Part shown: piece by piece, positions 825 through 14,456 of the stretch | How the letters are laid out: each line of letters starts with the position of its first letter | Numbering within the stretch: position 1 is the stretch's first letter | IMG/VR virus record: IMGVR_UViG_3300045690_000033 | DNA from: a virus | Length of the DNA: 37,774 bases | Strand: one strand, 5' to 3' | Position numbers and translations under genes: made by a program | The notes under the pieces: model-generated | The model's input: the letters and a program-made list of their open reading frames with translations, nothing else | Database searches by the model: none | Told to the model about the DNA's origin: nothing

Positions 825-1028
825 ATGAACAAAATTATTAAGGAAGTTAATCTTGTCGCTAAGATTCATGGGTATGAAAAATTGAAAGATATAAAGATGG
901 TGGATAAAACGAGATATTCGGCAATTGTAGGGAAAACGGGTGTGAAGATTTTAGTTGATATTCAGTCTGCAAAAGTTTGGCAATGGTTTCCGTTTCAAAA
1001 AAAACTATTAATACAAGCAAGAAAATGA
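825..1028 (+). CDS. Hypothetical protein
   Basis: ORF with a GAGGAG RBS 7 nt upstream. Confidence 0.55.
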   Translation: MNKIIKEVNLVAKIHGYEKLKDIKMVDKTRYSAIVGKTGVKILVDIQSAKVWQWFPFQKKLLIQARK

Positions 1029-1102
1029 AAAAGCACCAAGCCTCAGCTCAGTGCTAAACGTTATCCTATCTATAACATTATAGCACAGGAGGAATCGAAA
1101 GT

Positions 1103-1612
1103 ATGGCGCTTTTTGATGTTAGTAAATATGAAGTACCTAGAACAGATGAGATTGACATGTCCACAACTAAAACTAATTTTGAGGCTTTCCTTCGAGCATA
1201 TAAAAATTCTAGGGAAAAGATTGGGCAACCTAGAATTCCTAAAACGACTCAATCTTTTAGTTTGATTCCTCCTTCAACCGCAAATAGTGGAAGTGGAGAA
1301 GCAGAAAGACTATTGATCCAGAGGGAAGATGATCTTGCTGAGTTCAACGAGTTGCATCAACTATTTGCACGAGGATTTGCTGGAATATCACATCCTATAA
1401 AAGTCGATATCACGGAACGTAGAAGGCAGATATTCATTCTAAGATATCTACAAGGTTTCTCAGTTAGTGAAATACTAGACTTAGTGCCATTAGGGAAAGA
1501 TATTGTAACTGAAGAATCAAAAGAAGCAATGATACAGTTCTGTTTTGAATTACAGTTAATTGTTAAAAAAACGGAAACTTTCCGACTTATACCCGTCAAA
1601 GAGTCGGAATAA
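1103..1612 (+). CDS. ArpU family phage transcriptional regulator (late-gene activator type)
   Basis: RBS AGGAGG. Located just upstream of the packaging genes. The C-terminal sigma-region-4-like segment RRRQIFILRYLQGFSVSEILDLV and the N-terminal layout match ArpU-type proteins as I recall them. Confidence 0.75.
   Translation: MALFDVSKYEVPRTDEIDMSTTKTNFEAFLRAYKNSREKIGQPRIPKTTQSFSLIPPSTANSGSGEAERLLIQREDDLAEFNELHQLFARGFAGISHPIKVDITERRRQIFILRYLQGFSVSEILDLVPLGKDIVTEESKEAMIQFCFELQLIVKKTETFRLIPVKESE
1580..1609 (+). repeat. TTCCG...CGGAA hairpin-type linker copy overlapping the arpU 3' end
   Basis: TTCCGACT (1580..1587) pairs with AGTCGGAA (1602..1609). It aligns with the linker at 36299..36330. Confidence 0.5.
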
Positions 1613-3594: not shown

Positions 3595-5260
3595 ACATAT
3601 AAGGAAATGGTTTGACGCGATTGACGCTCGAGAGGTTGTTGTTTGTAAAGACCAATTGCTGTTAAAAAAATATTTGGAAAAACGAGTTTTTACACGGGAG
3701 GATATTTATTTTGACGAACAAATGGTTGAAGATTCTATTAACATTCCTGCCACTTATTTTCCTTTTGAATTGATTCCTTGGGAAAAATTTGTGCAGTGCT
3801 TTATCTATGGTTGTCGATGGAAAAAAGATCATACACTCGTTTTTAATAGATTCCTCACGTTAATGGGGCGCGGAAACGGTAAGACAGGTTATGCTTCATG
3901 GAACAACTTCTTTCTACTGACTGCAAAACATGGAATTAAAAATTATGATATTGATATTTTTGCCAACAATGAATCCCAAGCAAAGACAAGTTTTGAGGAT
4001 GTCTACCAAGTCATAAAAACAAACCCAGGTTTAAAAAAATCATTTTATATTTCGAAAGTATCTATTAGAAATTTAGCAACAAATAGTGAACTTAGATATA
4101 ACACTGCAAACGCTCGTACGAAGGATGGAAAACGTCCAGGGGCCAATCGCTTCGATGAAATCCATGAAAATGAAGACTACGCAACGATGAATGTTGCGAC
4201 TTCAGGCGGCGGTAAAATCCAAGACTACAGAGAATTCTACGATACGACAAACGGCGCTGTTAGAGGCGGACCATTAGATGATCTAATTGAAGAATCAATG
4301 ATGATTTTTTCGGGTGAATTAGGAATTGATAAAGAAGGTGCAGAATTTTCAAGTTTATTCCCGTTCATTTGTCGTTTAGACGATGATACGGAAGTTGATG
4401 ATCCGACTTTATGGGAAAAAGCTTGTCCAACAATCAATTACAACCAAGATCTAAAACGAAAGATGTTTCAAGAATACTCACAAATGCAACGTAATTCAGG
4501 GTTAAGATTAACATTTATGACTAAACGTATGAACAAACCTATGGAAGATACTAGGTTTGCTGTGGCGACGTACGAAGACGTTCTTCACACAAGAGAAAAA
4601 GAGTTTCCTGAAAGAATGGAAGAAGTTATTGGAACAGTTGACTTTGCAGATCGACGAGATTTTGCGTCATGTGGGCTACTTGGGAAGTATGAGAAAGATA
4701 TTTATTTTAAACAGCACACGTTTATTCATGAATCTGCATTGAAACTCCAAAATATAAAGAGAGAAATTATCGATATTTCATTGGATCAAGGGAAATCACA
4801 AATTGTTCACGGGAAGAATATTGAAGCTGAATACATCGTCGATTGGTTTCTAGAACAGTCAAAAAAGCATTATATTAAAAAGATTGCCATGGATATGTTC
4901 AGAGCTAAAATACTGAAACCTGCATTGGAAGAGGCCGGCTTTAATGTTGAGATTGTCCGAAGCGGTAGTGTTACGCACGGCATGCTTAAAGATTTAGTTG
5001 ATGATTTATTTATTAATCAGCGTTTATTTTTTGGAGACGACGCTATTATGCGGTGGTATTGTATGAATGTTTACGAAGAACATATTGCAAATGGAAATAT
5101 TAGATATGAAAAGATAGACGGAGAAACCAGAAAAACAGATGGTTTCTTTTCTTTTTTGCATGGACTTAATTTTATCGATGATATCTATGATTCTGCACCA
5201 ATCAAAATAAAAAATTTAACCAGTAATGCTGCTGGTGGTTTTAAACCATTAGTTTTTTAG
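3563..5260 (+). CDS. terL: Terminase large subunit
   Basis: 565 aa. Walker-A-like LMGRGNGKT, a DEIHE-type Walker B, and a C-terminal nuclease region. The start could also be ATG 3566 or 3572. Confidence 0.9.
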   Translation: MMQMNQFLSYKHIRKWFDAIDAREVVVCKDQLLLKKYLEKRVFTREDIYFDEQMVEDSINIPATYFPFELIPWEKFVQCFIYGCRWKKDHTLVFNRFLTLMGRGNGKTGYASWNNFFLLTAKHGIKNYDIDIFANNESQAKTSFEDVYQVIKTNPGLKKSFYISKVSIRNLATNSELRYNTANARTKDGKRPGANRFDEIHENEDYATMNVATSGGGKIQDYREFYDTTNGAVRGGPLDDLIEESMMIFSGELGIDKEGAEFSSLFPFICRLDDDTEVDDPTLWEKACPTINYNQDLKRKMFQEYSQMQRNSGLRLTFMTKRMNKPMEDTRFAVATYEDVLHTREKEFPERMEEVIGTVDFADRRDFASCGLLGKYEKDIYFKQHTFIHESALKLQNIKREIIDISLDQGKSQIVHGKNIEAEYIVDWFLEQSKKHYIKKIAMDMFRAKILKPALEEAGFNVEIVRSGSVTHGMLKDLVDDLFINQRLFFGDDAIMRWYCMNVYEEHIANGNIRYEKIDGETRKTDGFFSFLHGLNFIDDIYDSAPIKIKNLTSNAAGGFKPLVF

Positions 5261-7113: not shown

Positions 7114-8238
7114 ATGACAGTAAAAAATTTAAAAGGTGTTTCAGCAACGAGTGATAAATTAATGAGTGCATTTAAAGACGGAAACGAAGAAAACTTTGGA
7201 GAGGCAATGGTTGTCTTATCGAACGAAATTCAAGATCGAATTTTAAAAGAAGCTCAAACCGCAAATCAGGACCAATTAGTTCTAATGAACCGTGGTCAAC
7301 GCGTACTTACTAGCAAAGAAACGAAATTTTATAACGAAGTCGTCAATAACGAAGGATTTGCTGGCGTAGAGGAATTAGTACCGGCAACAGTCTTTGAACG
7401 TGTATTTGAAGACTTAACAAACGCCCATCCATTGCTTCAAAAGATTAATTTTGTGAATACAACTAGCGTTACGGAATGGATCGTCGGTCGTGGTGTGAAC
7501 CCTGCTTGGTGGGGGAAATTATGTGAAGACATCAAACAGGTATTGGACAATGGGTTTGATGTGATCAACATGAAACAATTCAAATTATCAGGTTATATGC
7601 CTTTATGTAAGGCAATGCTTGATTTAGGTCCTGAATGGATTGACCGCTATGTTCGGACTGTTTTAGTTGAATCGCTGCAAATCGCTCTAGAACAAGCCAT
7701 TGTAGACGGTACAGGTAAAGATCAACCTATCGGTATGATGCGTGATATGTCCTCTCAAACAGACGGAGAGTACAAAGAGAAGACTGCAGAAGCAGTTACC
7801 TCTTTAGATGCAACCGTCCTCGGAGGTCTAATGGCTCGTTTATCAAAACTAACAATTGAAGGTGTGACGGACCCAATTTACCGCAATGTCAACCCTTCTG
7901 ATGTTGTGCTAATTGTCAACCCAACTGATTATTGGTCAAAAGTCTTTCCTGCAAAAACAGTTTTAACTGCTAATGGTGAGTACGTTCAAACACTCCCTGT
8001 TCCAGTTTCGGATTTACAATCAGTAGCTGTGCCAGAAGGTAAAGCTGTAATTGGTGTAGCTTCAGACTACTTTATGGGGCTAGGATCAACTCTAAAGATT
8101 GAAGCTTCTGACGAGTACCACTTCGTAGAAGACGAACGTGTCTACTTGGCTAAACAATATGCGAATGGTTTGCCAAAACGAAATGATAGTTTCATTGTGT
8201 TGGATATTTCTAAATTAGCACCTACGCCGTCAAAATAG
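7114..8238 (+). CDS. Major capsid protein (HK97 fold family), short form
   Basis: 374 aa after the protease, in the HK97-type gene order. Confidence 0.85.
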   Translation: MTVKNLKGVSATSDKLMSAFKDGNEENFGEAMVVLSNEIQDRILKEAQTANQDQLVLMNRGQRVLTSKETKFYNEVVNNEGFAGVEELVPATVFERVFEDLTNAHPLLQKINFVNTTSVTEWIVGRGVNPAWWGKLCEDIKQVLDNGFDVINMKQFKLSGYMPLCKAMLDLGPEWIDRYVRTVLVESLQIALEQAIVDGTGKDQPIGMMRDMSSQTDGEYKEKTAEAVTSLDATVLGGLMARLSKLTIEGVTDPIYRNVNPSDVVLIVNPTDYWSKVFPAKTVLTANGEYVQTLPVPVSDLQSVAVPEGKAVIGVASDYFMGLGSTLKIEASDEYHFVEDERVYLAKQYANGLPKRNDSFIVLDISKLAPTPSK

Positions 8239-8300
8239 TGGCCCCTGAGGTAGGAAAAGTAACTCCTACCACTGATGGGGCGTCAATAGAATTAACGTAA
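7114..8300 (+). CDS. Predicted long form of major capsid protein via -1 frameshift (+21 aa: IVAPEVGKVTPTTDGASIELT)
   Basis: The -1 frame is open from 8214 to TAA 8298..8300. The added tail matches the one reachable from the major tail gene at 14 of 21 positions. Confidence 0.5.
8232..8281 (+). promoter_or_regulatory. Putative -1 frameshift signal: A_AAA_TAG slip site, 5-nt spacer, two-tier hairpin
   Basis: AAAA at 8232..8235 abuts stop TAG 8236..8238. Hairpin outer stem is 8241..8245/8277..8281 (gcccc/ggggc); inner stem is 8249..8254/8265..8270 (ggtagg/cctacc); loop is 10 nt. The same architecture occurs at 10562..10614. Confidence 0.55.
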
Positions 8301-8312
8301 GGAGGAAAAGGA

Positions 8313-8495
8313 ATGGCACGAACATTTGAAATTGACAAAAAAGATGGGACCAAAGTTTCTGAAGGAGCTAGCCCGTTAGCAATTACTGGACTAACAGCAG
8401 GAACGGTAGTAAAAAAGGGTGACTATATCGCCGTTGCAGTAGAGTCTGGAAAAAAATCTGATCCCGTTGATATTCCAGCTTTCACGGTCAATTAG
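8313..8495 (+). CDS. Small Ig-like/decoration-type protein (60 aa)
   Basis: Strong RBS AAGGAGG. Beta-rich sequence ...SPLAITGLTAGTVVKKGDYIAVAVE...VDIPAFTV resembles the C-terminal two-thirds of a bacterial Ig-like domain. It is in the same frame as the capsid -1 extension. Confidence 0.6.
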   Translation: MARTFEIDKKDGTKVSEGASPLAITGLTAGTVVKKGDYIAVAVESGKKSDPVDIPAFTVN

Positions 8496-8522
8496 TCTTT
8501 GAAATTAAGAGGGGGCTAACTT

Positions 8523-8840
8523 GTGGAAAAAAAGGATATATCTGACGGTCTTATGAGTGAAGTGAAACAAAAGTTGTATATTTCATGGGATGAAGACGAT
8601 GAACAGATTAAAAACATCATTCTAAGGGCGGCGACCTATATTCAAACAAAAGTATCTGAAACACTGAGCTTTGATCAAGGTACTCCTGAGTATGATTTGT
8701 TATTGGAAAGATGCAGGTATGACTGGAATAGTGCATTGGATGAATTCGAAAGGAATTATTCTAGCGAGATCGTCTCATTTATTCAACATTATGCTTTGGT
8801 TGACTGGCGTAGAAGACACGGTGTTTTCAATGGTGAATAA
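8523..8840 (+). CDS. Head-tail connector (gp6-like adaptor)
   Basis: GTG after AGAGGGGG. About 105 aa in the canonical position after the capsid gene. Confidence 0.6.
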   Translation: MEKKDISDGLMSEVKQKLYISWDEDDEQIKNIILRAATYIQTKVSETLSFDQGTPEYDLLLERCRYDWNSALDEFERNYSSEIVSFIQHYALVDWRRRHGVFNGE

Positions 8841-9183
8841 ACGAATTAGAGAAACCTTTAACGATGGAAATTTATTGGTTAAAACGCAAGTGACGAAGAG
8901 AAATGAGATAAAGAAAAAAATTGGGGCTGGCTATGAAAATATAGCTGGTCCTTTACGTTTTAGAAACCTTTCGATTCGTGATAGCGATTTGACCTCAATG
9001 GATGCCATGGATTCGAAATTATCCAGAAAAGTAAAGACGCCCTTTCATCCAGTCGTTAAACAATACAACAAAGATAAGTATTTTATCGTGATTGATCAAA
9101 CGAGGTATAACGCTATTTATGTTGATTACGATAACTACTATCTATATTTCTATTTAGAAAAAGTGGGTGATTTTGTTGAATGA
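8830..9183 (+). CDS. Head closure protein
   Basis: ATG 8830, in frame with track ORF 8671..9183 and overlapping the upstream stop. About 117 aa in the canonical position. Confidence 0.55.
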   Translation: MVNKRIRETFNDGNLLVKTQVTKRNEIKKKIGAGYENIAGPLRFRNLSIRDSDLTSMDAMDSKLSRKVKTPFHPVVKQYNKDKYFIVIDQTRYNAIYVDYDNYYLYFYLEKVGDFVE

Positions 9184-9571
9184 TCCTGAGAAAAAGCGAT
9201 TGAAAAATCAAACAATTGAAAAAATGTCAGTTTTGTCAGAGTATTTCAAGTTGCCGACTTACCAAGATTTTCTAAGTGAAGATGAGAAAAGTGATCTAGG
9301 TGATAGTTACGACTATTTCATTTTCGAAGAAGATGAAATCACGATCGTTGACAAGGATAAGTATACAATGGGTCAAAATGTGTACATCACTTTCTATTCT
9401 GAAAATAGAGACTACCTAACGGGGGATCAATTGGATGTTATCGCCTTAATGCATAACAACCTTTTCCGATTTAATGGAACCGATGTAAATCATCTGAAAT
9501 TAGACAACCAGGATCGCTATATCGATCAGGTTGTTTTTTCTTTTGTTCGAATTCTAAGGAGTGGTTGTTAA
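9167..9571 (+). CDS. Neck/head-tail joining protein (family not recognised)
   Basis: GTG start overlapping the upstream gene. Assigned by position in the neck module. Confidence 0.5.
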   Translation: MILLNDPEKKRLKNQTIEKMSVLSEYFKLPTYQDFLSEDEKSDLGDSYDYFIFEEDEITIVDKDKYTMGQNVYITFYSENRDYLTGDQLDVIALMHNNLFRFNGTDVNHLKLDNQDRYIDQVVFSFVRILRSGC

Positions 9572-9972
9572 TGTCTAACGGCTGGGAATTAACTCTTCAA
9601 GGGCATGATCAATTATTAGCGAAAATGGAAAAATACTCTTCTCAAAGCGAGAAGATAGTCAATCAAGTTTTGAAAGAGAGTGGTTCGAATATCGCTGTTA
9701 AAAAAATTGAACAGCGTATCCCAGTCTCAGAAGATCAACTCAGAAGTGGCCGCAAACATGCTAAATTTAGCAATCCACTGAAAGTTGAGCATATTAATTT
9801 AGGCTTTATTGTACGACCCAAAAAGAAGTTTGACTATGTTAAATACCCAGACTTAGGGATTGGACATTCCACAAACAATCAGCCTGAAGAGTTTATGAAA
9901 CGTGGGTTGCAAATCGCGCTTGATCCTATAACCGAAGAGATCGTAAAAGGGTTCGATAAATTAAATGAATAA
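9571..9972 (+). CDS. HK97 gp10-family tail-completion/neck protein
   Basis: ATG 9571 (TAATG overlap). The N-terminus MSNGWELTLQGHDQLLAKMEKY is in the style of gp10-family proteins. Confidence 0.55.
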   Translation: MSNGWELTLQGHDQLLAKMEKYSSQSEKIVNQVLKESGSNIAVKKIEQRIPVSEDQLRSGRKHAKFSNPLKVEHINLGFIVRPKKKFDYVKYPDLGIGHSTNNQPEEFMKRGLQIALDPITEEIVKGFDKLNE

Positions 9973-9989
9973 AGGAGAGAGAATATAAC

Positions 9990-10571
9990 ATGGTAAATAC
10001 GATTGTGACAACATTTGATAATGTAAGTATTAAAAAAATCGCCTTCATGTTTAAAGGTGCAGAGTCAGCAGACGTGACTGATTGTAATGGTCAGTTGGAA
10101 GGCGAAACAGAAATGCAAACAATTGAAAAAAAATGCGGGGCGGCGGTCGTGAAGACCAAGTCCAAACCTGTAGGAATGACAGTGACCATTACCGCACATG
10201 TACCTGTCGTCGTGTTCCGAAATTTCTATGGCTTAAAACATGATGAACGATTAAAACCGGGCATCTATTCATATGGACCTGATTCAGTAGGTATCGATTT
10301 TGCTTTAGCTGCAGAGGTTGTCGACGATTTCGAAGAAAACTCAAAATTATTAGCTTTCTTATCGGCAACATCGAATACGGGTTTAACCTTTACTATCGAA
10401 AATGGTGCAGATGAAGTTGCGGCGTTAGAACTAGAAACTAAAATTATGACTGATCAGTTTGGAAAGTATTATCATGAAGCGATTGTTGCTGAATTAGATG
10501 AAGACCTAACGGATGCATGGATGAACACGTTGTCGCCTGAAGTGATTAAAAAGGCAGACGCGGGAAAATAA
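9990..10571 (+). CDS. Major tail protein, short form
   Basis: 193 aa immediately before the G/GT chaperone pair. RBS AAGGAGAG. Confidence 0.75.
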   Translation: MVNTIVTTFDNVSIKKIAFMFKGAESADVTDCNGQLEGETEMQTIEKKCGAAVVKTKSKPVGMTVTITAHVPVVVFRNFYGLKHDERLKPGIYSYGPDSVGIDFALAAEVVDDFEENSKLLAFLSATSNTGLTFTIENGADEVAALELETKIMTDQFGKYYHEAIVAELDEDLTDAWMNTLSPEVIKKADAGK

Positions 10572-10633
10572 CAGCCCCTACTATAGGAAATGTTACTCCT
10601 ACAGTTGATGGGGCAACCATAGACTTAACTTAA
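9990..10633 (+). CDS. Predicted long form of major tail protein via -1 frameshift (+21 aa: ITAPTIGNVTPTVDGATIDLT)
   Basis: The -1 frame is open from the slip site to TAA 10631..10633. Confidence 0.55.
10562..10614 (+). promoter_or_regulatory. Putative -1 frameshift signal: G_GGA_AAA heptamer at the stop codon, 5-nt spacer, two-tier hairpin
   Basis: Classical X_XXY_YYZ heptamer GGGAAAA at 10562..10568 with zero-frame codons GGA AAA, followed by TAA. Hairpin outer stem is 10574..10578/10610..10614 (gcccc/ggggc); inner stem is 10581..10587/10598..10604 (6 of 7 bp); loop is 10 nt. Confidence 0.65.
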
Positions 10634-10660
10634 AAGAGAGGGATTCCTCTCTTTTTTTAT
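10634..10660 (+). terminator. Intrinsic terminator after the major tail gene
   Basis: Stem aagagagg/cctctctt (10634..10641 / 10646..10653), loop gatt, then a T run. Confidence 0.75.
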
Positions 10661-10678
10661 TTGAAAGGGGAACTATCG

Positions 10679-11053
10679 ATGATTGAAGAATTATTAGAAG
10701 ATTATTCAAAACTAGAATTAAACAATGGGGAGATTGTAACCCTTGAACCGAAGTTGAATTTAAAAAAATTAATGTTAATCAATCGGGATTTCAATACAAA
10801 TGAATTTGCGAAAATGTCTGTAGGCAATGAGCAAATGGATGTCAGTGTCATGCAAGGAGCAAAAGCAGTTTATGTGGCCTACAGACAAGCGAATATGAAT
10901 GAATACATGAGTTTTGATGAATTTATTGATCATTGGTATTTTGATATGGCTCAAGCAACAATGATCTACAATCTCATGATGTTTAAAAAAGTTCAAAATG
11001 ACTACCAGAAAGCTTTTGAGAAGGCAAATAAAGAAAAAAAGCTTCAAAAATAA
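10679..11053 (+). CDS. Tail assembly chaperone (G-like)
   Basis: ATG 10679 after AAAGGGGA. Position is between the major tail protein and the tape measure. Confidence 0.75.
   Translation: MIEELLEDYSKLELNNGEIVTLEPKLNLKKLMLINRDFNTNEFAKMSVGNEQMDVSVMQGAKAVYVAYRQANMNEYMSFDEFIDHWYFDMAQATMIYNLMMFKKVQNDYQKAFEKANKEKKLQK
11035..11041 (+). promoter_or_regulatory. A_AAA_AAG -1 slippery heptamer for the G-T fusion
   Basis: Zero-frame codons AAA AAG at 11036..11041. The -1 frame is open from there into ORF 11056..11247. Confidence 0.7.
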
Positions 11054-11055
11054 AA

Positions 11056-11247
11056 ATGCCAAAATTTCAAGTGAAAACGTGGGTTGATGTCTATTCGATG
11101 TTGACGGACGTTTTTTCTTTGTCTCACGAACAGGCTATGAGTAATTTGCCGTTAGACGACATCCTTCAAATTGCATACAACAAGCAGGCTTATGACGGAT
11201 GGATGAGTTATGCGGTTAGAAAAGAACAAGAGAAAGGAGGAAAATAA
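11056..11247 (+). CDS. T segment of the tail chaperone (expressed as a G-T fusion by -1 frameshift)
   Basis: Lies in the -1 frame relative to G, with no stop between the heptamer and 11056. Confidence 0.65.
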   Translation: MPKFQVKTWVDVYSMLTDVFSLSHEQAMSNLPLDDILQIAYNKQAYDGWMSYAVRKEQEKGGK

Positions 11248-14200
11248 TGGTCAAAAAACGCAGTGAGGCCGAAGTTGTTTTCAAAGCCACTGATGACGGG
11301 TTGAAAGATACTGTCAAAGGCATTACATCCGAACTGACAAAAAATAGAGCGGAGTTTAAACTCGAACAGGCGCAACTTCAGTTGACCGGATCAGAGTCTG
11401 AAAAGCTAGAGAGCAAACTAGGAAGCTTACAAAAACAATATGATTTACAAGGTCAGAAAGTAGACGCTGTTAGCCAACGCCTTTCAAATGCGAAGAAATT
11501 TTATGGTGAAAATTCAATCGAAGTCCAAAAGTTAGAGCGCGAATTGATCAACCAGCAAACAGCACAACAACGAGTCGCAAATGAAATTGACAAAACTTCT
11601 CAAGCGCTGAGTACAGCTAAAGGGGATACGCAAACGTATGCCGGCACGATGAGAGAACTAGATGGCGAACAACGGAAATTACAAGCTTCGGCTAACCTGG
11701 TTGAATCGGAATATAAAAAATGGCAAGCAACTGCCGGTCAATCGGCGAGCGAATCTGAAAAGCTAGCAAAAGCACAAGAGTATGTAGGTAAACAAAGTGA
11801 TATAGCCGAACAAAAAATTGGCGTCATGCGCCAACAATTAGATGCTACTCAAAAAGAATTTGGAAGCACATCAACAGAAGCCATGCAGATGCAGGCAAAG
11901 TTAAACGATGCAGAACGTGAATTTGAAGAGTTGGGCACGGCTGCAAAAAGCGTTGATACAACCAATCTTGATGATATCGGCAATAAAATCGATATGAATA
12001 ACCTTATGCAAGCGTCAGATGTTATCTCTGATATTGGCGATAAAATGGCTGAGCTAGGTCAAGGTGCAATGGAATCAGCTGATAATATTGGCGGAGCACA
12101 AGCGAAAATACAAGCGAGCTTTGGATTAACAAAAGAAGAAGCAAAAGGTCTGACAGATGTTGCTCGCGGTATTTACTATGATGGTTTTGGCGAATCTTTG
12201 GACCAAGTCACTGATGCGGTAGTCCTTGTAAAAAGAAATCTAGGTGATCTGAATAATCAAGATTTACAGAATATCACACAACAAGCCATAACGCTTGATA
12301 ACACATTAGGTGCTGATATGGATGAGACACTTCGTGGTGTTAGTGGTCTAATGACCAATTTTGGTTTATCAGCTCAGGATGCAATGGATTTGATGGTTGC
12401 TGGGACACAAAATGGATTAGATAAATCGCATGAGCTAGGCGACAACATGGCTGAATATAGCCAGTTGTGGTCACAAATGGGTTTTTCAGCAAAGGATACC
12501 TTTTCAATTTTGGATAACGGTTTGGATTCAGGTGCATACAACCTCGACAAAGTGAATGACTTTGTTAAAGAGTTTGGGGTTTCTTTGTCGGACGGTCGAA
12601 TTGAAGACAACATACAAAGCTTTTCAAAAGGAACGCAAGACTTGTTTGGTGAGTGGAAGCAAGGAAAAGCAACGTCAGCAGATGTCTTTAAATCGGTCAT
12701 TGGTGACTTTAAAGGAATGACGAACGAACAGGAAAAACTTTCTTTAGCGTCAACAATATGGTCCGCACTAGGTGAAGACAACTCAATGAAAGTAATCGAA
12801 TCATTGACAAAAGTTAACCATACCTTTGATGATGTGGGCGGGGCTGCACAAAAGATGAACGATGCATCAACAACGCCAATGCAAGAACTGAATGGTAAAA
12901 TAGCGGAATTAAAAGATTCCTTAGCCCCTATCGGAGGGACAATCATTGAATCATTAACTCCTATTGTTGAGTTTTTATCTAAAATGGCACAAGCGTTTAA
13001 TGGGTTACCCGAACCAGTAAAGAAAATAATTGTCGTTATTAGTGGGTTAGCAGCAGCGTTTGCTGCACTTTCCCCATTTATTGCTTCTCTGATCACCATA
13101 TTCTCTACTTTAGGGGGATTGTTTGCTGGTGGCGGTGCGTTAGCTGCCGTAGGAACGTTCTTTACAGCAACTTTATTGCCAGCGATACCGATTATCCTAG
13201 CAGTGGTAGCTGCTGTGGTAGCAATTATAGCAATTATAAAAAACTGGGGAGCGATCACTGACTGGCTGTCTGAGAAATGGACAACATTCAAAGATTGGCT
13301 AGTGGGCATTTGGACAAGTATCAGCACAACCGCTAGCACAGTTTGGACTGCCATCACTACGGCCATAACCGGCGCCTGGAACAACCTAGTCGCTATCGCT
13401 AGTCCGATTTTTGAAACAATCAAAAATGTGATAACCGTCGTGTTTATGACTATTCAAAGTGTGATCTCCGGTATCTGGACAGTTATTACTGCTCTGCTTC
13501 AAACTGCATGGAACTTTATCGTTGCTATGGCAAGCCCAATATTACAACCATTAGCAGCTTTCTTTAGTGGACTATGGAATGGGATTAAGAATGTAGCCAC
13601 AACGGTATGGAGTACAGTATCTAGTTTCCTATCTTCTGTTTGGAACGCACTATCAAACGTTGCTAAGTCAATATTCAATCCTGTTGCTTCATTCTTTTCC
13701 TCTATATGGAATGGGATTAAAAATGTGACATCCAATGTATGGGATTCCATAAAGAATACTTTATCAACTGTCTGGAATGGGATAAAAGCGGTCGCCTCAA
13801 GTATATTCAATAGTTTGGCATCTTTTCTTTCTGGGTTGTGGAATGGCATTAAAAATACTGCATCTAGCATTTGGAATGGCATCAAATCTACAATAAGTAA
13901 TGTGGCAAATGGTATTAAAGATTCAGTATCAGGGGTTTTTAATGGGTTAAAAAGTACTGTTTCGAATATTTTTAACGGAATCAAAAATGCTATGACTAGT
14001 CCAATAGAAGCTGCTAAGAACACTATTAGCAATATTATTGATCGAATTAAGGGATTCTTCAGCGGGATCAATCTTAGGCTACCAAGAATTGAAATGCCAC
14101 CATTGCCACATTTTAGTTTATCTGGTCATTTTAGTTTGAAACCACCTTCAGTTCCACACTTAAATGTGGATTGGTACAAAAAAGGTAGTGTCTTTAATGG

Positions 14201-14456
14201 ACCGAATGTTATTGGTGTTGGTGAAGCAGGACCGGAAGCAGTTTTACCTCTTAATGATACTGTACTGGGTTCTATTGGTCGTATGATTGCTGAAAGAATG
14301 CCAGAGGGATCAGGAAACGGTCAGATAGTCCACAATGAAATTAAACTGGAAATTAATGGTAATGTTGATAGCGAGGCAACAGCTCGCAGGATGGTTGACG
14401 ACATTGTGGGAAGAATCACTGAAATCTATAACAATAAAAATTCAGCATTTAGCTAG
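11247..14456 (+). CDS. Tape measure protein
   Basis: 1069 aa with a coiled-coil N-terminus, central hydrophobic segments, and periodic WNGIKN-type repeats. Confidence 0.9.
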   Translation: MVKKRSEAEVVFKATDDGLKDTVKGITSELTKNRAEFKLEQAQLQLTGSESEKLESKLGSLQKQYDLQGQKVDAVSQRLSNAKKFYGENSIEVQKLERELINQQTAQQRVANEIDKTSQALSTAKGDTQTYAGTMRELDGEQRKLQASANLVESEYKKWQATAGQSASESEKLAKAQEYVGKQSDIAEQKIGVMRQQLDATQKEFGSTSTEAMQMQAKLNDAEREFEELGTAAKSVDTTNLDDIGNKIDMNNLMQASDVISDIGDKMAELGQGAMESADNIGGAQAKIQASFGLTKEEAKGLTDVARGIYYDGFGESLDQVTDAVVLVKRNLGDLNNQDLQNITQQAITLDNTLGADMDETLRGVSGLMTNFGLSAQDAMDLMVAGTQNGLDKSHELGDNMAEYSQLWSQMGFSAKDTFSILDNGLDSGAYNLDKVNDFVKEFGVSLSDGRIEDNIQSFSKGTQDLFGEWKQGKATSADVFKSVIGDFKGMTNEQEKLSLASTIWSALGEDNSMKVIESLTKVNHTFDDVGGAAQKMNDASTTPMQELNGKIAELKDSLAPIGGTIIESLTPIVEFLSKMAQAFNGLPEPVKKIIVVISGLAAAFAALSPFIASLITIFSTLGGLFAGGGALAAVGTFFTATLLPAIPIILAVVAAVVAIIAIIKNWGAITDWLSEKWTTFKDWLVGIWTSISTTASTVWTAITTAITGAWNNLVAIASPIFETIKNVITVVFMTIQSVISGIWTVITALLQTAWNFIVAMASPILQPLAAFFSGLWNGIKNVATTVWSTVSSFLSSVWNALSNVAKSIFNPVASFFSSIWNGIKNVTSNVWDSIKNTLSTVWNGIKAVASSIFNSLASFLSGLWNGIKNTASSIWNGIKSTISNVANGIKDSVSGVFNGLKSTVSNIFNGIKNAMTSPIEAAKNTISNIIDRIKGFFSGINLRLPRIEMPPLPHFSLSGHFSLKPPSVPHLNVDWYKKGSVFNGPNVIGVGEAGPEAVLPLNDTVLGSIGRMIAERMPEGSGNGQIVHNEIKLEINGNVDSEATARRMVDDIVGRITEIYNNKNSAFS

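Follow-up and report, generated by a model that had tools for sequence, protein, structure and literature searches.

The virus record IMGVR_UViG_3300045690_000033 of IMG/VR, a stretch of 37,774 nucleotides (nt) that is referred to below as the window, carries an HK97-type major capsid protein gene whose end combines a short slippery sequence, a hairpin and a short open -1 frame. A ribosome shifting into that frame would add a peptide of 21 residues, here called the tag, to the capsid protein. A similar tag can be read in the -1 frame at the end of the major tail protein gene, and a small gene directly behind the capsid tag encodes a protein of 60 residues, here called the catcher. The explanation proposed for this arrangement has two layers, programmed -1 frameshifting that would place the tag on virion proteins and docking of the catcher on the tag as two parts of a split fibronectin type III (FN3)-like domain, and its overall probability is put at roughly 0.6.

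The product of the capsid open reading frame (ORF) matches Phage_capsid in Pfam (1.4e-13) and the major head protein family phrog_10 in PHROG (3.6e-54). Read directly, the 3' end of this ORF is CCG TCA (8230-8232) AAA (8233-8235) TAG (8236-8238). Past AAA at 8232-8234 the -1 codons run ATA GTG GCC CCT ... ACG (8235..8297), and the predicted peptides of the shifted product include the junction ...SK-IVAPEVGK as well as VTPTTDGASIELT. In the -1 frame TCA becomes GTC, which makes re-pairing impossible, and the Lys-tRNA alone can re-pair, as an earlier note on this DNA had stated; sequence reading and folding likewise reproduced the site, the 21-codon open frame and the hairpin that it had described. 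As the Ser-tRNA cannot re-pair, the capsid site G_UCA_AAA is not a canonical X_XXY_YYZ heptamer, in which both the P-site and the A-site tRNAs re-pair, but is of the tetramer/hexanucleotide type (Z_ZZN or NNA_AAR), with a zero-frame AAR lysine codon preceded by A (A_AAA, 8232..8235). The slippery codon also stands directly 5' of the stop (AAA TAG, 8233..8238), as it does in shifty stops. The term non-canonical used by the earlier note is therefore apt with respect to the heptamer rule but not otherwise, as A_AAR tetramers and NNA_AAR hexanucleotides form a described class. Its distinction between the two slips in the window is upheld by the tail gene, which ends GCG GGA AAA TAA with the heptamer G_GGA_AAA, where both tRNAs re-pair. 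Capsid and tail tags are identical at 14 of 21 residues, a likeness which, judged from the sequences, is far beyond chance.

Features of the capsid and tail gene ends in the window (coordinates refer to the window; ORF, open reading frame)
Feature	Position	Strand	Basis or detail
Major capsid protein gene (374 residues, HK97-type), zero frame	7114..8238	+	ORF list; stop TAG 8236..8238
Slip site hexanucleotide TCA_AAA with adjoining TAG	8230..8238	+	A_AAA tetramer at 8232..8235
Predicted -1 extension, 21-residue capsid tag IVAPEVGKVTPTTDGASIELT plus TAA 8298..8300	8235..8300	+	Translation
Putative stimulatory hairpin	8241..8281	+	Outer stem GCCCC 8241-8245 / GGGGC 8277-8281; starts 5 nt past the AAA codon
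Inner stem of the capsid hairpin, 7 bp	GGUAGGA 8249-8255 / UCCUACC 8264-8270	+	Fold
Shine-Dalgarno sequence AAGGAGG, overlapping the tag stop codon	8299..8305	+	7-nt spacer to ATG 8313
60-residue catcher, FN3-like strands C-G without A-B, putative decoration module	8313..8495	+	PHROG, profile search, fused model
Major tail protein gene (193 residues), stop TAA 10569..10571	9990..10571	+	ORF list; phrog_117 major tail protein, 1.8e-15
Canonical heptamer G_GGA_AAA just before the tail gene stop (GCG GGA AAA TAA)	10562..10568	+	Sequence
Tail-site hairpin, GCCCC 10574-10578 / GGGGC 10610-10614	10574..10614	+	5 nt past AAA; fold -16.8 kcal/mol
Predicted -1 frame tail tag ITAPTIGNVTPTVDGATIDLT plus TAA, stop 10631..10633	10568..10633	+	Translation
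Terminator-like hairpin and T-run between tail and chaperone genes, overlapping the tail tag stop	10632..10655	+	Sequence

Further tags were collected by four routes: from viral contigs retrieved by capsid similarity; by a DNA pattern of hairpin plus tag in viral contigs and species-representative genomes; through the neighbouring 60-residue protein, a route blind to both the RNA and the slip site; and from the published phage phiEf11. This gave 51 different tag sequences of the frameshift type, spread over 27 zero-frame contexts and eight carrier families, in Enterococcus-type phages, and in the species-representative genomes the pattern was found mainly in Enterococcus prophages, along with a few likely chance matches in high-GC genomes. 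All 51 tags lie in the -1 frame exactly where a long ORF upstream (100-394 residues) has its stop. The carriers belong to families of major head (phrog_10, 544, 422 and 909) and major tail proteins (phrog_117, 88, 820 and 238), by which the tag would be attached to the major capsid and/or the major tail protein, giving long and short forms. Column entropy in the tag frame is 0.52, 0.44 and 1.52 bits for the first, second and third codon position, the signature of a translated sequence, and tag length is constant, the stop being always at the same position and followed by a Shine-Dalgarno sequence and a start codon. Because the tags are always in -1 at the stop, occur in eight carrier families and bear a coding signature, programmed -1 frameshifting at the end of the capsid gene is very probably real. 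The view of the earlier note that the tag itself is selected, not the slip sequence, also agrees with this collection, in which one tag is reached through 27 slip contexts in eight head and tail families and occurs in in-frame versions too. The contrary explanation without any recoding, which takes the -1 ORF with its hairpin for an intergenic element that codes for nothing (an mRNA stabiliser or terminator) or for the relic of a decayed extension, or else derives the extra product from transcriptional slippage on the A run, could appeal to the lack of significance of the single-sequence fold. It is scarcely credible in the face of the codon-position conservation pattern, a peptide conserved over eight carrier families and always in -1, and a fixed-length tag stop with its Shine-Dalgarno sequence and start codon, while the G-run and canonical heptamer variants of the site indicate ribosomal rather than transcriptional slippage. 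Four A's are also too few for efficient slippage of the polymerase.

Among relatives that share the capsid C-terminus, L063/Enterococcus dispar (84% identical) and E. nangangensis still have TCA AAA TAA together with the hairpin and an open -1 frame; closure of that frame in relatives, which the earlier note had named as the finding that would speak against it, was thus not seen. Capsid or tail genes also end in TCA AAA TAR in L063/E. dispar, E. nangangensis, L175 and L180. The capsids nearest in sequence, at about 86% identity (Enterococcus phage 4995_1, which is L001, and about 65 prophages among L003-L068) have neither slip site nor tag and end instead with an in-frame Thr-rich tail (...ALGTTTTTTKPTTTTTTTQA before the stop) of variable repeat length. 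The capsids of the 4995_1 type are neither for nor against frameshifting, and the capsid C-terminus is a swappable module. Several ends outside this pattern were also seen. The distant capsid relatives L069-L074 (about 54% identity) end ...CCT ACA CCC TGA, which resembles the sites ACA_CCC and CCC_UGA at which +1 shifts are reported in Listeria phage PSA. L181 (about 1000..1060) has a tag in the -1 frame, but no slippery run can be recognised close to the stop (...CAG CCC CAA CCG TAG). L221 (about 3830..3960) and L222 (about 1080..1160) have a divergent tag (VTAPGSVATQDVTATGVTITAV before the stop) along with another hairpin, and their sites are AGG GAG TAA and GTA AAG TAA.

The capsid hairpin folds with a minimum free energy of -20.9 kcal/mol and is not stabler than its dinucleotide shuffles (z = -0.82; 42 of the 200 reach its stability). 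Since the single-sequence fold is unremarkable, the reality of the hairpin rests on comparative evidence. In an alignment of 36 sequences the inner stem has a covariation score of 0.221, compared with 0.074 +/- 0.018 in shuffles, none of which reached 0.221 in 500 trials, and slid registers of the stem score 0.03-0.18. Where the last base of a Val codon pairs with the last base of a Pro codon, all four Watson-Crick types are present, namely UA (11), CG (7), GC (6) and AU (3). A natural control is provided by tags that are encoded in frame and need no shift, as in ORF15 of phiEf11 and in the tail proteins of a large group of related prophages. For the Gly in the 3' arm all 47 of 47 frameshift tags use GGG, whereas the 13 in-frame tags use GGC (7), GGT (5) or GGG (1); over the same 60 nt the mean minimum free energy is -20.6 kcal/mol for the former and -7.8 kcal/mol for the latter. 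In the L083 group GCCCC is preserved in another codon phase, giving Ser-Pro and not Ala-Pro. Both the covariation at synonymous sites and the loss of the structure where the tag is encoded in frame indicate that the hairpin is a selected RNA element and not a by-product of the peptide. With its stem 5 nt past AAA it lies within the distance of about 5-9 nt downstream that is typical of the heptamer class; a scan of 8000..11000 with Rfam found no known family.

The slip sites fall into four groups. There are A-run contexts in which only the second codon re-pairs (TCA AAA, TCA AAG, GAA AAG), G-run contexts in which only the first re-pairs (GGG GAG, GGG AAG), canonical heptamers (G_GGA_AAA, C_CCA_AAA, G_GGA_AAG, A_AAA_AAA, and G_GGA_AAC in L195), and contexts in which TCA AAA or A_AAA_AAA is separated from the stop by a sense codon; TCA AAA or TCA AAG accounts for 11 of the 27 contexts. 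The tail gene of L195 has an apparent indel. The earlier note had placed the Lys-tRNA of the capsid site in the P site with UAG in an empty A site, where slow termination and the assistance of the hairpin would lead to slippage. This model is in keeping with the stop that directly follows the slip codon in 22 of the 27 contexts, the window included, with the Lys-tRNA as the sole tRNA able to re-pair at the capsid site, and with shifty stops and the CCC_UGA of PSA tsh, which are established cases of single-tRNA slippage with a vacant A site (PMC5009743). The remaining five contexts, however, have one sense codon between the slip codon and the stop at unchanged stem spacing, as in TCA AAA CAA TAG (E. 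dispar tail), TCA AAA TCC TAG (E. nangangensis tail) and the A_AAA_AAA GYR TAG capsids, by which the stop is not a conserved part of the signal and is probably not a required one. The outer stem begins 5-6 nt past the second slippery codon in all copies but one (4 nt), the spacer having been measured in those copies whose fold contains the GCCCC/GGGGC outer stem; three contexts whose minimum-free-energy fold lacks that stem were left out. A spacer that stays constant while the stop moves favours slippage of an A-site Lys-tRNA over stop-paused slippage in the P site. Moreover, the stem starts 2 nt past the stop, and with AAA in the P site 3-4 of the 5 outer-stem base pairs would lie inside the ribosome. 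In GGG GAG TAR and GGG AAG TAG the codon before the stop re-pairs poorly (GAG to GGA, AAG to GAA), which means that the P-site/stop model does not generalise. Stop-paused slippage is therefore a doubtful account of the capsid site, although P-site slippage is possible as a second chance to shift; of the mechanism in the earlier note the help from the hairpin is retained, and the dependence on the stop is not.

By contrast, a single register fits all contexts, with the last two codons of the slippery site in the P and A sites and the stem at the mRNA entrance, which is the classical geometry of -1 programmed frameshifting. In this register the re-pairing codon stands in the A site at A-run contexts and in the P site at G-run contexts, and at heptamers both codons re-pair. 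Slippage in this A-site register is the probable mechanism at the capsid site. A_AAA and A_AAG tetramers and NNA_AAR hexanucleotides are known as a -1 class in which the tRNA in the A site re-pairs (PMC4066793; PMC5009743, section 31), with A_CGA_AAG in Bacillus subtilis cdd and G_CGA_AAG in IS1222 among the known sites (PMC5009743). A systematic study in Escherichia coli found A_AAA among six tetramers that are clearly above background, in need of a downstream stimulator (PMC4066793). Efficiency at such sites is set by the wobble propensity of the tRNA on the 5' NNA codon (PMC5009743), which is a plausible reason for the recurrence of UCA.

Partial experimental support comes by analogy from phiEf11, whose virions show two major-head bands of 41 and 38 kDa and for whose head protein a 21-residue -1 extension was proposed by the authors, who called it speculative (PMC5221750). 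The -1 frame of phiEf11 ORF10 encodes a member of the same tag family (IEAPKVESVIPTTDGASIVLS), again with 21 residues, a hairpin of the GCCCC/GGGGC type and a position at the stop of the major head gene; it is unlike the capsid site of the window in that it has the canonical A_AAA_AAA. The major tail protein of this phage, ORF15 (L174, 6600..7189), ends with an in-frame tag (...SVTPTFDGASTELS before the stop), and the next gene, ORF16, consists of a catcher and a Big_2 domain. ORF15 ran at 28 kDa compared with a predicted 21.5 kDa, and no explanation was given (PMC5221750). The authors noted neither the in-frame tag on ORF15 nor the complementary module that starts ORF16.

The relation between tag and catcher is seen in homologues in which the two are contiguous. 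These are a minority, and the sequence directly before the catcher match in them is tag-like: ...SPTLTELTPTKDGFTVKLT-GSNEDS-TFRIYDKSG... in P0093 and ...PPTIESVTPTEDGAVVIVV-SGNGIDGS-TMKVYQ... in P0058, P0025 and P0006, while P0064 is a further homologue that is contiguous through tag, loop and catcher. The sequence of the window, IELT*GGKGMAR-TFEID, aligns to them without gaps, including the motif VTPTxDGA, which places the split within one loop. The catcher ORF of the window is in the frame of the capsid tag, from which it is separated by TAA and four codons (GGA GGA AAA GGA), and the stretch 8298..8313, when translated through, aligns with the natural B-C loop of the contiguous domains. L063 too has its catcher in the tag frame and most other relatives do not; the arrangement in the window looks like the recent split of an extension that was once in cis. 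Such an extension exists in L180, where an identical TCA AAA TAG site and hairpin append the whole domain in a -1 ORF of 91 residues, the capsid being without the tag. The extension is thus a complete immunoglobulin (Ig)-like/FN3 domain in L180, whereas the 21 residues of the window correspond to two strands.

A second recoding event could in principle restore the same product, with readthrough of TAA 8298..8300 joining the tag and the 60-residue ORF in cis, as in Lactobacillus phage A2. The shared frame in the window and in L063, the short gap of TAA and four codons in the former and the lack of a stop at this place in L180 would suit this idea. As the catcher is usually in another frame than the tag (with 2, 10, 11, 14 or 17 intervening nt in most other phages), readthrough was ruled out as the means of joining the two, and whatever chance is left to it is very small given that the catcher has its own strong Shine-Dalgarno sequence and ATG, that in gene calls and in the protein collection 108 cluster representatives are free proteins of 58-373 residues starting here, and that the tail tag of the window has no catcher downstream.

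Structure prediction gives a consistent picture. AlphaFold2 was run on the tag, GGKG and the 60-residue protein as one chain with an alignment of natural homologues, and returned one compact sandwich with a predicted local distance difference test (pLDDT) of 94.3 and a predicted template modelling score of 0.84, the tag strands lying at residues 5-12 and 15-21 with pLDDT 95-98. A single-sequence run of tag, linker and catcher gave no usable model (pLDDT 36). The top Foldseek matches of the fused model in the PDB were almost all FN3 domains (template modelling score 0.5-0.69, probability 1.0, E about 3e-3), in line with a seven-strand beta-sandwich that matches solved FN3 domains. As the alignment contained natural contiguous domains, the model shows compatibility with the FN3 fold and not binding in trans. 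At the level of sequence the Pfam fn3 family matched the contiguous homologues below threshold only, PDB sequence matches to fibronectin reached E of about 0.04, and a Pfam search with the tag and the 60-residue protein of the window gave no match and thus no fn3 hit at the gathering score. Taken together with the alignments, it is highly likely that the tag and the 60-residue protein are two parts of one FN3-like domain.

The catcher is also a family of its own. The 60-residue protein matches the N-termini of phrog_341, phrog_14018 and phrog_37836, and the PHROG families are annotated as major tail protein. An exhaustive profile search yielded 159 cluster representatives, and among the catcher-only matches 108 of 112 start within 15 residues of the protein N-terminus, in proteins of 58-568 residues, at least some of which continue from the catcher into a Big_2 domain. 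The distance from a tag stop to the start of the catcher gene is 2-51 nt in every case, and the gene has its own Shine-Dalgarno sequence and ATG. Both modules are present in six small proteins that begin with a catcher and finish with a tag (P0045, P0017, P0022, P0075, P0088 and P0115; the 85-residue P0045 ends SVTPTADGAEIELT). These might fold back on themselves as circular permutants or link up head to tail into chains. Matches in BFVD include catcher-like small proteins annotated as tail or structural in the Staphylococcus myoviruses phiIPLA-C1C, ISP and Remus and in Enterococcus phage Aramis, by which the module may extend beyond siphophage prophages.

Tag and catcher occur together in 131 of 144 tag-bearing loci; in the 13 tag-only loci the tags are identical to those of catcher-bearing loci, and in most of them the available sequence ends before the catcher position. 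This bears on the possibility that the tag acts alone, as a short adhesive or inter-subunit peptide, and that the 60-residue protein is an unrelated small structural protein. The tail tag of the window, which is followed by no catcher gene but by a terminator-like hairpin immediately downstream, would be explained in this way. Such an independence of the two parts is nevertheless improbable, in view of the co-occurrence and of the shared tags at the exceptional loci, of the gapless alignment of both to contiguous FN3-like domains with VTPTxDGA included, of the cis version in L180, and of the fact that catchers systematically lack exactly strands A and B.

From these observations the following model is proposed. 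With UCA in the P site and AAA in the A site of a ribosome on the capsid mRNA, the hairpin 8241..8281 would meet the mRNA entrance and hinder translocation, and a minority of ribosomes would shift to -1 on UCA_AAA, the Lys-tRNA re-pairing from AAA (8233-8235) to AAA (8232-8234) while the Ser-tRNA does not. The efficiency at this site is presumably low. Shifted ribosomes would read AUA GUG GCC... and add 21 residues, and unshifted ones would terminate at UAG; on the tail gene the same would take place on G_GGA_AAA, probably more efficiently. The tag would form the A-B beta-hairpin of the domain, the remaining five strands being supplied as the product of 8313..8495, and the incomplete catcher would dock on tagged capsid and tail subunits and complete the beta-sandwich in trans, with frameshift efficiency setting how many subunits are decorated. 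This assembly of tag and catcher on the virion is on balance the likelier outcome, because of the homology to contiguous domains, the co-occurrence and the N-terminal truncation of the catcher at the B-C loop. Seen across phages, a portable split-FN3 tag-and-catcher system of Enterococcus-type phages that recruits decoration proteins via the 21-residue A-B hairpin is somewhat favoured; with similarly restrained confidence, the tag may be placed on a tunable fraction of subunits, by -1 shifts of varying strength or in frame, and some partners may carry Big_2 or a further tag that allows chains.

Besides the ordinary stability of the window hairpin described above, four points weigh against this model. 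For this phage the shifted product is predicted from its DNA alone; mass spectrometry of phiEf11 did not find the extension peptide (PMC5221750); A_AAA was the weakest of the six effective tetramers in E. coli (PMC4066793); and the fused model is an artificial single chain whose alignment included natural contiguous domains. For the A-site register in particular, the adjacency of the stop in 22 of 27 contexts could mean a real stimulatory role and not only selection for a clean short form.

The window has a third -1 site, which lies downstream of the tail gene. The gene of the tail assembly chaperone (10661..11053) has a canonical A_AAA_AAG at 11035..11041, four codons before its stop, where the -1 frame enters an ATG-initiated ORF (11056..11247); this site, ahead of the tape measure gene (11247..14456), is the conserved chaperone frameshift of the G/T type.

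The sites collected here constitute a natural and well-replicated set of -1 sites of the tetramer and hexanucleotide type in Gram-positive phages, with 27 contexts around one conserved tag. The in-frame tags without hairpin serve as an internal control, which makes the set a useful natural experiment on the constrained parts of a frameshift signal. If the tag is part of a domain that is completed in trans, very short frameshift extensions on head and tail proteins would be explained, and many small genes that follow them, annotated as major tail protein or hypothetical, would be given a function. The pair would furthermore represent a compact natural docking system for the display of cargo on phage heads and tails, and frameshift efficiency would be a means of controlling the stoichiometry of virion decoration.

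With regard to what is known, the type of slip site, C-terminal frameshift extensions and the suggestion of a 21-residue extension for phiEf11 are all on record. Three features did not turn up in the searched literature, namely that the extension comprises no more than part of a domain, that one piece reaches both head and tail proteins via many slip sites or in frame, and that the rest of the domain is a separate, widespread N-terminal module; a search for a split FN3/Ig decoration system in phages returned nothing relevant. In the Z_ZZN/NNA_AAR sites of cdd, IS1222 and E. coli (PMC4066793, PMC5009743), as in the capsid site of the window, re-pairing is confined to the A-site Lys-tRNA, the 5' codon, which does not allow it, has A as its last letter, a downstream structure is needed a few nt away and the expected efficiency is low. 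Unlike them, the site of the window is found right where a phage capsid gene ends, in a family of sites that usually abut the stop and recurrently have UCA as 5' codon, and its stimulator, a hairpin in two tiers, is at the same time the coding sequence of the added peptide.

Ig-like or FN3 extensions that frameshifting adds C-terminally to head and tail proteins are well known from gp5B/gp10B of A2, 10B of T3, gp17.1* of SPP1 and the Listeria phages PSA, A118 and A500 (PMC5009743). These cases resemble the window in that long and short forms of the major capsid and tail proteins arise from a frameshift at the 3' end, that one module occurs on head and tail, and that the module is promiscuous across carrier families. 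PSA was considered as a source of tag homologues and rejected, its cps and tsh extensions being unrelated in sequence and made by +1 shifts. The extension in the cases listed is a whole domain in cis, whereas that of the window comprises two strands with the rest coming from a separate gene; L180 is the cis counterpart within the tag family of the window. The closest parallels to the proposed docking are found in fold complementation, namely in split tag/catcher pairs and in the donor-strand complementation of chaperone-usher pili, where an Ig-like sandwich that is missing edge strands is likewise completed by another polypeptide, and those members of the catcher family that bear catcher and tag at opposite ends would similarly allow chains. 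This likeness is drawn from sequence and from the fused model. The differences are that two strands would be donated in place of one, with no sign of covalent bonding, and that the link would go to virion proteins, the supply of the donor being presumably set by the frameshift.

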